A DNA stretch of 64,000 nt from Eledone cirrhosa (Eukaryota), in contig OZ024756.1 in the NCBI GenBank assembly GCA_964016885.1, forward strand, positions 124,001 through 188,000. The letters are read 5' to 3'. Both the position numbers and the translations under genes were made by a program. The notes under the pieces were generated by a model, which was not told the origin of the DNA, made no database searches, and saw nothing but the letters and a program-made list of their open reading frames with translations. Shown one piece after another: positions 2,346-30,656 of this stretch. The stretch's first letter is position 1, and each line of letters opens with the position of its first letter.

Positions 2346-3004
2346 TCAACACCACCACCTCCAATAACATAATCATCAACACCACCACCAACACAATCAC
2401 CAACACCAACACCACCACTACCAACAACACATCCACCACCACCAACACAATCAACAACAACCACCACCAACACAATCAACAACAACCACCACCACCATCA
2501 TCATCACCACCACCATCATCATTATCATTATATTAACAGTTCTATTATAGTCTAGCTGAAGACAGTCTTTGTATAAGGGCATAAAAATCATCTCAACTGT
2601 TTAGAGAAATATTTCTAGTGACAGAAATGCTGCAAAAACAGACAAAAACACAAGACGACGACATTGGAAATAGAAGATAAATTGTGTACTAAGATCTGGT
2701 TGAAGTTTGGTGACAGCTAAACAGATGTCATCAATAAACACGCACACACAAACACATTTGCACACGCACGCACACACTCACACACAAAAACATACACACA
2801 CACACTTGTACAAAAAGAAACACAGACACAGAAACACACACTTTTTATGCCACACACAAAAAGAAACACATACACACATACATTCCAAGAGGGAAACACA
2901 CACATACAACAGAGAGAGAGAAACACACACACACACACAACAATGGAAAAAAAATGTAAAAAAGATTAAATCAAGTCGAAATATCTAAGCAATGTCACCA
3001 GATA

Positions 3005-5655
3005 GTGTTAGACTAGCTTAGTGGTCAGTGTGTTGGTGTTATACTAGCTTAGTGGTCAGTGTGTTGGTGTTATACTAGCTTAGTGGTCAGTGTGTTGGTG
3101 TTAGACTAGCTTAGTGGTCAGTGTGTTGGTGTTAGACTGTGGCTTAGTGGTCAGTGTGTTGGTGTTAGACTGTGGCTTAGTGGTTAGTGTGTTGGTGTTA
3201 GACTGTGGCTTAGTGGTTAGTGTGTTGGTGTTAGACTGGCTTAGTGGTTAGTGTGTTGGTCTTAGTCTGGACTGTGGCTTAGTGGTCAGTGTGTTGGTGT
3301 TAGACTGTGGCTTAGTGGTCAGTGTGTTGGTGTTAGACTGTGGCTTAGTGGTCAGTGTGTTGGTGTCAGACTGTGGCTTAGTGGTCAGTGTGTTGGTGTT
3401 AGACTGTGGCTTAGTGGTTAGTGTGTTGGTGTTAGACTGTGGCTTAGTGGTTAGTGTGTTGGTGTTAGACTGTGGCTTAGTGGTTAGTGTGTTGGTGTTA
3501 GACTAGCTTAGTGGTCAGTGTGTTGGTGTTAGACTGTAGCTTAGTGGTTAGTGTTGGTGTCAGACTGTGGCTTAGTGGTCAGTGTGTTGGTGTTAGACTG
3601 TGGCTTAGTGGTTAGTGTGTTGGTGTTAGACTGTGGCTTAGTGGTTAGTGTGTTGGTGTTAGACGAGCTTAGTGGTCAGTGTGTTGGTGTTAGACTGTGG
3701 CTTAGTGGTCAGTGTGTTGGTGTTAGACTGTGGCTTAGTGGTCAGTGTGTTGGTGTTAGACTGTGGCTTAGTGGTCAGTGTGTTGGTGTTAGACTGTGGC
3801 TTAGTGGTTAGTGTGTTGGTGTTAGACTGTGGCTTAGTGGTTAGTGTGTTGGTGTCAGACTGTGGCTTAGTGGTTAGTGTGTTGGTGTTAGACTGTGGCT
3901 TAGTGGTCAGTGTGTTGGTGTCAGACTGTGGCTTAGTGGTTAGTGTGTTGGTGTTAGACTGTAGCTTAGTGGTTAGTGTGTTGGTCTTAGTCTGGACTGT
4001 GGCTTAGTGGTTAGTGTGTTGGTGTTAGACTGTGGCTTAGTGGTTAGTGTGTTGGTCTTAGTCTGGACTGTGGCTTAGTGGTTAGTGTGTTGGTGTTAGA
4101 CTGTAGCTTAGTGGTTAGTGTGTTGGTCTTAGTCTGGACTGTGGCTTAGTGGTTAGTGTGTTGGTGTTAGACTGTGGCTTAGTGGTTAGTGTGTTGGTCT
4201 TAGTCTGGACTGTGGCTTAGTGGTTAGTGTGTTGGTGTTAGACTGTGGCTTAGTGGTTAGTGTGTTGGTCTTAGTCTGGACTGTGGCTTAGTGGTTAGTG
4301 TGTTGGTGTTAGACTGTAGCTTAGTGGTTAGTGTGTTGGTCTTAGTCTGGACTGTGGCTTAGTGGTTAGTGTGTTGGTGTTAGACTGTAGCTTAGTGGTT
4401 AGTGTGTTGGTCTTAGTCTGGACTGTGGCTTAGTGGTTAGTGTGTTGGTGTTAGACTGTGGCTTAGTGGTTAGTGTGTTGGTCTTAGTCTGGACTGTGGC
4501 TTAGTGGTTAGTGTGTTGGTGTTAGACTGTGGCTTAGTGGTTAGTGTGTTGGTCTTAGTCTGGACTGTGGCTTAGTGGTTAGTGTGTTGGTGTTAGACTG
4601 TGGCTTAGTGGTTAGTGTGTTGGTGTTAGACTGTGGCTTAGTGGTTAGTGTGTTGGTGTCAGACTGTGGCTTAGTGGTTAGTGTGTTGGTGTTAGACTGG
4701 CTTAGTGGTCAGTGTGTTGGTGTTAGACTGTGGCTTAGTGGTTAGTGTGTTGGTCTTAGTCTGGACTGTAGCTTAGTGGTTAGTGTGTTGGTGTTAGACT
4801 GTGGCTTAGTGGTTAGTGTGTTGGTGTTAGACTGTAGCTTAGTGGTTAGTGTGTTGGTCTTAGTCTGGACTGTGGCTTAGTGGTTAGTGTGTTGGTCTTA
4901 GTCTGGACTGTGGCTTAGTGGTTAGTGTGTTGGTCTTAGTCTGGACTGTGGCTTAGTGGTTAGTGTGTTGTGGTGTCAGACTGTGGCTTAGTGGTTAGTG
5001 TGTTGGTGTTAGTCTGGACTGTGGCTTAGTGGTTAGTGTGTTGGTGTTAGACTGTAGCTTAGTGGTTAGTGTGTTGGTCTTAGTCTGGACTGTAGCTTAG
5101 TGGTTAGTGTGTTGGTCTTAGTCTGGTCTGAGGCTTAGTGGTTAGTGTGTTGTGGTGTCAGACTGTGGCTTAGTGGTTAGTGTGTTGGTCTTAGTCTGGA
5201 CTGTGGCTTAGTGGTTAGTGTGTTGGTGTTAGACTGTAGCTTAGTGGTTAGTGTGTTGGTCTTAGTCTGGACTGTGGCTTAGTGGTTAGTGTTAGACTGT
5301 GGCTTAGTGGTGAGTGTGTTGGTCTTAGATTGTAGCTTAGTGGTTAGTGCGTTGGTGTTAGACTGTGGCTTAGTGGTCAGTGTGTTGGTGTTAGACTGTG
5401 GCTTAGAGGTCAGTGTGTTGGTCTTAGACTATGGCTTAGTGGTTAGTGTGTTGGTCTTAGACAGTAGCTTAGTGGTTAGTGTGTTGGTCTTAGACTGTGG
5501 CTTAGTGATTAGTGTGTTGGTCTTAGTCTGGACTGTGGCTTAGTGTGTTGGTCTTAGACTGTGCCTTAGTGGTTAGTGTGTTGGTGTTAGACTGTGGCTT
5601 AGTGGTTAGTGTGTTGGTCTTAGATTGTAGCTTAGTGGTTAGTGTGTTGGTCTTA
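3005..5655. repeat. 33-bp minisatellite (gtggcttagtggttagtgtgttggtgttagact) with 38-bp variant; SINE-head/A-box-like unit
   Basis: About 75-80 tandem units; 33+38 bp alternation at ~3985-4600. Confidence 0.95.
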
Positions 5656-20222: not shown

Positions 20223-20926
20223 ACAGGTACAAGTAAATTAACAGAGAAACAGTCTAAAATGTCCTATCTAGAGATGCAATAACTGCAGTGTGAATTTGAT
20301 CTTACGAACCACAAGTTACTGTAGTTCAATACCAATATTGATTTTGCCAGGATGCAATGATACACAAGATTAACAAAGCCTGATTTATGTTTCAGCTTTA
20401 ATAAAAAATATTGTGTGATAAGTGCTGAGAATTATTGGAAGCTAATGTTCTTTGATTACATGACTGGAATATGATGGACAGAATCAAAACTGGTTATTCT
20501 ATAGTGTTTAATAACTGGGAGAATATTTCTGTAGGTCACACTTTACTGAAGAAGAGAGGGATTCTAGGGTAGTGTCATGGGTTACTGAGAGAGAGAGAGA
20601 GAGATACTAGGGTAGTGTCATTGTTTACTGAGAGATACTAGGGTAGTGTCATAGTTTACTGGGTCCTAACAAAATGAACTCTCCCAACCACCCCGCCATC
20701 CAAGCACTATATCCTGTGTCCTTACAAAATGAACTCCCCCAACCAGGGTGGAGGTGACTTCTACTGCAGCTATTTCACAGGTAACAGCCCTCATTATTGC
20801 TAACCACTGAACTGTGAAGAAAAGGTGGAACCTATTTAAATCTAACAAGAGAGTTTACATATCTTCAGCTACCAAGACAATGGTTGTGGTATGGTTAGAA
20901 CTCAGAACTCATTATTATAATCATAG

Positions 20927-21298
20927 AAATGAGGCAAGCATGCTCCGTTGGATGTGCAGTGTCAATGTGCGTGAACGACCCAGCATGAATGTGTTGAGAG
21001 AGAAACTGTGTCTGAGAGGGATAGAATGTAGTGTGCGAGAGAGGAGACTGCGGTGGTATGGACATGTGATGCGCATGGAGGATGACCGATGGGTGAAGAA
21101 GTGCCAGTTGAAGGAAGACATGGTAGAGGTAGACCACGAAAAACATGGGCGGAGGTGGTGAGAACAGACCGCAGATCGCTGAAGCTCACGGTGGAGATGA
21201 CGAAGGACCGTGACAAGTGGAAAGATGCTGTGCTGAATAGGACTCGTCCCACCCTTGCAAGCAGGGAAGTGCCGACGTAAAATGATGATGATGATGAT
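20927..21298 (+). mobile_element. RTE-clade LINE 3' end
   Basis: RNEASMLRWMC...RRLRWYGHVMRMEDDRWVKK, then a frameshifted GRPRKTW...DRDKWK; (ATG)n tail; close homolog of 10252-10617. Confidence 0.9.
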
Positions 21299-25430: not shown

Positions 25431-25910
25431 ATAAATGAATGTAATCTGAGTTTTTCGAATATTAATAATAACATTCGATTTGTTTGCAATTGTGCAAACA
25501 AGCCGAATTTTTATGCCATGTCAGTAGAATGAGCCCCTCGTCCTTGCTCTTGTGTTGGCATGCTGACATATACACAAACACATATATATAAATATATAAT
25601 ATAAGATCAAGAGATGGTTAAAAGAGTTCCAAGTATTTTATTATGCGCATTTCAAAAACAAATATCATGGGATGATATCTGCGTTCTCATCAGATAACAT
25701 AGGGAGACATGATAAGAAGCTTAAAAAACACTTGTGAATAGTGAAGTTTTAAATCAACATATGAAAAATAAATTAAGATGGATGTATGAGATTGGGAAAA
25801 AGTGAGGGGGGTTTGGAAAAGGTAAGGAAGAGGAAGGAATAAGAGTAAAGGATGGTGGGGGAGGAGTATAAGAAGGAAGGATATTGTGCTACAATAAAAC
25901 TCACCTCCTA
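25430..25910 (-). mobile_element. Penelope-like element 3' end/pseudo-LTR embedded between TA-rich microsatellites
   Basis: On minus strand: pyrimidine-rich tract, hammerhead, hairpin-rich tail; flanked on both sides by (TA)n-type repeats. Confidence 0.6.
25634..25701 (-). ncRNA. Minimal type I hammerhead ribozyme motif
   Basis: Minus strand: tatgttat-CTGATGA-gaacgcagatatcat-ccc-atgatatttgttttt-GAAA-tgcgca-TA-ataaaata; stem II 14/15 pairs, palindromic stem III AUGCGCAU, stem I 7/8 pairs. Confidence 0.85.
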
Positions 25911-26039
25911 CATATATAAATATATATATACATATATATATAAATACATATACACATATATATAAATAAATATATAATTTGCTGTTTTTGGTCACCTTAG
26001 AAGGGTTATAAGACAGAACGTTAGGAGCATGGCTGGGTA

Positions 26040-26232
26040 ATAATTGTTTCGACTTTTGGCACAAGGCCAGCAATTATCTCAGTGCATTACTGGTACTTTA
26101 TTTTATCAACCCCGTAAGGATGAAAGGCAAAGTTAACCTCGGCGGGATTTGAACTCAGACTGTAAAGGGAGGCAACTATGCTAGAAAGCATGGCGTCCGA
26201 CCCTCTACCGATACTGCCAATTCACCGCCCTA
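26040..26232 (-). mobile_element. SINE family A, near full length
   Basis: Close match to 8755-8975 and reverse complement of 15345-15533. Confidence 0.85.
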
Positions 26233-30582: not shown

Positions 30583-30656
30583 TATTCCATTACCCAAGGT
30601 TTCACAAAGTTAGACAATTCTAACAGAGACGTCTGTTTCGTTCATCAGATGAAATA
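30583..30656 (-). ncRNA. Type I hammerhead ribozyme motif
   Basis: Minus strand: tatttcat-CTGATGA-acgaa...tttgt-GAAA-ccttgg-GTA-atggaata; stem I 8 bp (one GU), stem III ACC/GGU with UUG loop; predicted cleavage between 30591 and 30590. Confidence 0.75.

Follow-up and report, generated by a model that had tools for sequence, protein, structure and literature searches.

The window considered here is a 64,000-nt stretch of the Eledone cirrhosa genome (assembly GCA_964016885.1, contig OZ024756.1, positions 124,001 to 188,000), and coordinates below are those of the window unless another location is named. The minus strand carries a hammerhead ribozyme motif at 25634..25701. Its two core boxes were read directly from the sequence: CUGAUGA (C3 to A9, 25687..25693), which is invariant among subfamily representatives, and GAAA (G12 to A15.1, 25650..25653). 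Stem II (25654..25686) forms 14 of 15 pairs between 25686-25672 and 25668-25654, closed by a CCC loop to which most siblings add three bases. Four of its pairs are G-U, pair 4 is a C-U mismatch, and the pair at 10.1-11.1 is G-U. Stem III is the palindrome AUGCGCAU (25643..25650), for which an intermolecular 8-bp duplex of -10.5 kcal/mol is predicted. Helix I has seven of eight pairs between its 5' strand (25694..25701) and its 3' strand (25634..25641). The one mismatch is G-A, with G 25698, rare by comparison with siblings, opposite A 25637 at pair 5. From the sequence and the established hammerhead numbering, cleavage is predicted 3' of A17 (25642), after an AUA triplet and thus between 25642 and 25641.

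The initial annotation had described a canonical minus-strand core (CUGAUGA, GAAA, AUA), a stem II with 14 of 15 pairs, a perfectly palindromic stem III of the dimer type and the same predicted cut. We find each of these features at 25693-25687, 25653-25650 and the adjoining AUA triplet, in stem II, and at 25650-25643, and the cut position agrees with hammerhead numbering. Thus, the window copy has the core boxes (CUGANGA and GAAA) and NUH triplet of a type I hammerhead, and helices I and II can form, with covariation, at the level of the family. The core is also conserved among genomic homologs at that level, which the annotation had named as a test of its proposal.

Core words by themselves occurred in 25 of 100 shuffles. 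The core combined with a stem II of at least 8 pairs, a stem I of at least 5 and a palindromic stem III was found in none of 200 Markov simulations of the window, and the complete anatomy is not due to chance. The folding z-score is -1.8 for the minus strand and 0.07 for the plus strand. A search of Rfam, at the gathering threshold and at E<=10, returned no hammerhead match, probably because a long stem II with a minimal stem III lies outside the models.

The hammerhead is part of a dispersed repeat. Sibling comparison identifies the minus-strand sequence at 25597..25882 (~285 bp) as the 5'-truncated 3' end, or pseudo-LTR, of a Hydra-type Penelope-like element (PLE). A first look yielded 2,465 candidates, of which 40 were scored; the full matches listed have 92-97% identity. 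The pattern core-N20-45-GAAATGCGCAT has 19,997 matches in the 3.0-Gb genome, and the reversed control has none. An inverted 29-nt piece of the element tail (25883..25911, plus strand) abuts the fragment at its 5' end; the tail is the longer 3' end of the element, which doubles as its 5' UTR. A (TA)n microsatellite follows at 25912..25976, and a shorter (TA)n flank lies at the other end of the fragment, near 25581-25596. In this arrangement, the window copy has the two-armed form usual for PLE insertions, set between two (TA)n repeats.

The family unit is circularly permuted, and runs from the cut through ~45 nt to a first 3' end, then through a tail of ~88 nt to a second 3' end, the remainder of the 5' UTR and the ORF. 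Relative to the cut, the two family 3' ends therefore lie ~45 and ~133 nt downstream; the window copy terminates at the short one, ~45 nt past the cut. Of the first 100 cores in the C1 listing, 34 stand alone, 59 are accompanied by a divergent inverted partner, and for 12 another core lies on the same strand within 7 kb. Short inverted pairs arranged back to back are also very numerous (L040-L068 and L239-L268); their cores are 125-199 nt apart, and their arms join at a CATATG palindrome located 120-125 nt upstream of the cut. These pairs may reflect either a hot spot for fold-back or a subfamily resembling MITEs.

Siblings are collinear upstream for 1.5-3 kb, into an ORF, with scattered 5' ends. 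Stop-free ORFs of 805-819 codons were found upstream of the same hammerhead at five loci (L111-L115); the window copy itself is without an ORF. The family protein has RW, DKT and YRDD motifs, a CxCX5C linker, GIY/YIG-like words, CxxC and CxH, and no CCHH between the GIY/YIG-like words. Siblings thus have the single ORF with reverse transcriptase (RT) and C-terminal GIY-YIG-type endonuclease that is expected of EN+ Penelope-like elements. The atlas neighbours of the family protein (0.95-0.98) carry HTH_animal, GIY-YIG and RVT_1 domains. Searches of Pfam with two family ORFs and of PDB sequences with one returned no significant match.

Members of the Hydra clade are described as having DKT, no CCHH, the CxCX5C linker, and CxxC and CxH around conserved E and N residues (PMC8557442). 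The ORFs of L111-L114 share DKT, the absence of CCHH, CxCX5C, CxxC and CxH, and the family shows the insertion preference of the clade for (TA)n. Also present in the family are the partial pseudo-LTR tandems, inverted 5'-truncated arms and one-ended tail that are features of PLEs. From the motifs and a by-eye alignment, we assign the family with considerable confidence to Penelope-like elements with Hydra-clade motifs. Hammerheads in Penelope-like elements have already been described (PMC4209133, PMC8557442). Very probably, then, the motif in the window is a type I hammerhead from the 3' end of a Penelope-like element of the Hydra type, present in a lone, 5'-truncated and likely inactive copy. 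Elsewhere in the genome (G000:C4:352199356-352283514), four near-identical ORF copies occur with ~28-kb spacing, i.e., an element caught in a larger tandem duplication.

Other repeats were also noted. A second hammerhead, at 30591-30648 on the minus strand of the window, belongs to a different dispersed family, for which 40 of 2,190 first-look candidates were scored. It has CUGAUGA, a long stem II, a 3-bp stem III with a UUG loop, a GUA triplet and an 8-pair stem I; the core is kept in the 11 siblings compared, and no endonuclease ORF was identified within 1.5 kb. A third hammerhead-like motif, with palindromic stem III, is found in another repeat that ends in (TA)n (L116, ~2975-3060). The minus-strand sequence at ~26040-26230, ~300 bp upstream of the fragment, is presumably the head and body of a tRNA-like SINE. 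An ORF fragment at 20811-21161 (plus strand) looks like the C-terminal part of a LINE reverse transcriptase of the RTE type.

In every copy where the hammerhead is continuous with one of the two 3' ends, copying passed the cut site. The insertion ends were examined for a trace of cleavage. Exact junctions of the tail to the 5' UTR number 218. The first 89 listed were mapped; two were unanchored, and of the remaining 87, 63 run upstream through the cut and 24 start at or after it, one of them exactly there. When copies were chosen by the sequence just past the cut, one of 30 starts at that site. A single-filter search from +14 to -12 found 208 junctions, and a by-eye tally of the 100 listed places five at the cut, with a mean of 3.7 per site. 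Counts for single sites (37 matches at 0, 17 at +6 and 8 at -8, of which 28 of 30, 17 of 17 and 2 of 8 checked, respectively, were true junctions) taken alone hint at a step at the cut. The single-filter histogram did not reproduce this step, and we give the single-site counts less weight because their filters and microhomologies differ. The idea, raised by locus L112, that cleavage leaves a footprint in the form of 5' ends clustered at the cut is rejected by these data (1/87, 1/30 and 5/100). Nor do we claim that RT stalls at the stem II base, where 17 of the 100 listed junctions fall at -11/-12, because this position coincides with the filter edge and a T-run. The insertion ends suggest that the copied RNAs were unbroken at the cut, either as uncut read-through or as molecules cut and rejoined into circles; such circles have been proposed previously (PMC4209133).

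Some copies are hypermutated from A to G. In the two-armed insertion L316/L317 (G000:C1:346294322-346299887), A-to-G changes on the sense strand affect 154 of 379 A positions in one arm and 135 of 365 in the other, compared with 2-6 per 226-310 in L009 and L016. A targeted pattern found nine matches, including the clearly hypermutated L354, L356, L357, L358 and L362. In hypermutated copies, 20-43% of adenosines are changed to G on the sense strand, the core included. The 5' neighbours favoured at edited positions are U (0.40) and A (0.42), compared with C (0.16) and G (0.21). ADAR enzymes favour U and A as 5' neighbours. The arms of L316/L317 have 129 of 135 changed sites in common, and those of L358 have 13 of 13, as if both inverted arms had been copied from one edited RNA. 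In the literature consulted, our search found no direct report of A-to-G edited retroelement copies in a genome.

Is the ribozyme maintained in the family? Stem II was compared across 11 representatives of three subfamilies, hand-picked and related sequences for which percentages do not represent a probability; 95.6% of cells are paired, compared with 34-61% in slid controls. Three pairs have changed on both sides and seven on one side. The G-U pairs of stem II in subfamily A, to which the window copy belongs, are mostly A-U in subfamily B, and pair 10.1-11.1 is G-U in A, A-U in B and G-C in C. The annotation had pointed out that the G-U pairs of stem II work only on the minus strand. This argument holds for the family as a whole, but the pairs are subfamily-wide rather than peculiar to the window copy, which also rules out that they arose there by C-to-T decay. 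All three subfamilies keep the C-U mismatch at stem II pair 4 (L075, L089 and L097 compared with L004 and L113), and a tertiary contact is possible.

Rare variants, counted in copies chosen independently of their core, are about as frequent in the core as in the flanks, both in subfamily A (16 copies; 6/192 vs 41/2,162, p 0.27) and in subfamily B (63 copies; 3/754 vs 64/8,457, p 0.37). This fits neutral decay of the core after insertion, apparently without protection. Inherited variants affect none of 18 columns of the core and stem III and 17 of 135 flank columns, a difference that is not significant (p 0.22); the A and B majorities likewise differ at none of 18 columns of the core and stem III and at 18 of 137 flank columns. 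Together with the subfamily differences in stem II that preserve pairing on the minus strand, this is suggestive of selection on the ribozyme in master lineages. The same two observations weigh against the most durable alternative, that the family hammerhead is vestigial, its apparent conservation reflecting young copies and no lineage needing it. In favour of a vestigial hammerhead, both long-ORF subfamilies examined are without the canonical G10.1-C11.1 pair (they have G-U and A-U), templates are unbroken at the cut, and copies with an edited core were inserted nevertheless. We consider this alternative unlikely; it is compatible with an inert window copy.

The window copy had been annotated as the best-preserved hammerhead and the strongest candidate for an active ribozyme. 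Neither description is supported. The G that breaks stem I occurs in none of the 29 closest copies, and in 720 exact subfamily matches genome-wide the position is T in 709 and G in 11. The G10.1-C11.1 pair is highly conserved in hammerheads, as a feature rather than an absolute requirement (PMC4209133), and is replaced by G-U in the window copy as throughout subfamily A. For folding comparisons we used L017, a sibling whose loop is equally short and whose stem I is intact. With the fold constrained to the hammerhead, the predicted energy is -6.7 kcal/mol for the window copy and -10.4 for L017, and for the double-hammerhead dimer it is -25.9 and -33.3 kcal/mol, so that the stem I mismatch costs ~3.7 kcal/mol in the monomer and ~7.4 in the dimer. 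Cofold minima are -35.5 (window copy) and -34.3 kcal/mol (L017), which places the active dimer 9.6 kcal/mol above the minimum in the window copy and 1.0 above it in L017. In a context of ~240 nt, monomeric stem I is predicted for neither. By these measures hundreds of siblings are in better shape than the window copy. Within the 164 kb searched around the window, no same-strand family core lies closer than 57 kb, and the annotation had not recognised the truncated retroelement insertion. Among contigs from four public runs compared with the locus, none spans the hammerhead, and one fits the 3' junction (25475-25609) without differences.

The window copy is a real but ordinary hammerhead; folding energies and context indicate that, as a lone and truncated copy with a damaged helix, it is very probably inactive. 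Counting against inactivity, four core-proximal stem I pairs remain despite the mismatch, and any of ~20,000 copies could provide a partner RNA in trans. The window copy might then cut a host or read-through transcript by pairing with family RNA via its palindrome. Its core bases are all intact, the predicted palindrome duplex would be available and the presumed SINE lies upstream on the same strand. The stem I mismatch, the G-U at 10.1-11.1, the energy gap of the active dimer and the distance to the nearest same-strand core all oppose this reading, as does the report that PLE hammerheads are poor cutters even as dimers (PMC4209133), and we regard it as very unlikely. C-type copies, with the canonical G10.1-C11.1 pair (798 matches), would be better candidates for the bench. 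That the copy belongs instead to a non-LTR retrozyme, in which short non-coding units with a type I hammerhead are repeated in tandem, is the least probable reading, for although its size (~300 bp), the many short copies and an argued origin of retrozymes from PLE pseudo-LTRs (10.64898/2026.07.22.740005) are in its favour, the locus has no head-to-tail tandem array, same-strand partners within 7 kb are few (12 of the first 100 cores listed), and the collinearity of siblings into the ORF, with scattered 5' ends, already contradicts it.

Returning to a truncated copy of a Hydra-type Penelope-like element, we infer the following history. The protein of the element would nick a (TA)n repeat and copy family RNA, beginning at two internal sites, to yield a sense arm and a short inverted one. 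Neutral changes, including that in stem I, would have been acquired by the window copy later. The ribozyme may be retained in master lineages at the family level, where it could cleave as a dimer via the palindrome or with the help of the element protein. A more speculative extension, which we hold only tentatively and think doubtful as a whole, is that the family ribozyme cuts, the unit RNA is rejoined to a circle and the enzyme of the element copies it from two starts past the sealed site. Genomic copies, including A-to-G edited ones with arms that share their edits, would then be a fossil record of single RNA templates, in a family whose most abundant subfamilies are without the canonical G10.1-C11.1 pair.

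The window copy is of little consequence, being a decayed fragment from a large repeat family. The in vivo role of PLE hammerheads is described as an open question (PMC4209133, PMC8557442), for which this family of ~20,000 copies, with its ORFs free of interruptions, pair 10.1-11.1 in three natural versions and the insertion ends mapped here, is a ready test set. From a second clade, the insertion ends also add genomic evidence in favour of the in vitro finding that copied RNA does not end at the cut site.

Among described elements, the family resembles Hydra-1_Obim, a Hydra-clade PLE (PMC8557442), in its single ORF, C-terminal endonuclease without CCHH, DKT, CxCX5C linker, CxxC and CxH, and the two proteins align by eye (supplement of PMC8557442). 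Likenesses to PLEs of the clade extend to (TA)n targets, the 3' hammerhead, and the tail and inverted arms (PMC8557442). Hydra-1_Obim is nevertheless a different family, with another hammerhead sequence, and the Eledone GAAATGCGCAT is absent from the PMC8557442 supplement. The clade is also described as having an N-terminal RWK motif and a length generally <3 kb (PMC8557442), whereas the Eledone family has RW-I, a unit of 3.3-3.9 kb (the hammerhead-to-hammerhead spacing in three tandems) and direct pseudo-LTRs. Type I topology, a long helix II, a small palindromic helix III suited to dimers and occurrence mostly as single dispersed copies of truncated PLEs are shared with metazoan PLE hammerheads, as those are described in PMC4209133. 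The Eledone family differs from that description in having no unpaired base between 9 and 10.1, in replacing G10.1-C11.1 by G-U (A) or A-U (B) and keeping it in C, and in a stem II of 15-16 pairs, about twice as long. The Anolis Poseidon element PAc, tested in vitro, has a hammerhead that cuts only with protein; insertion does not require it, and RNA ends are absent at its cut site (PMC11167929). There, two internal RT starts define the tail and uncut RNA is the template; Eledone copies likewise span the cut and do not end at it. PAc belongs to another clade, with its ORF start inside the hammerhead and a tail of 30-40 nt (PMC11167929), whereas in the Eledone family the ORF start lies ~230 nt past the cut, and ~88 nt separate the two 3' ends.
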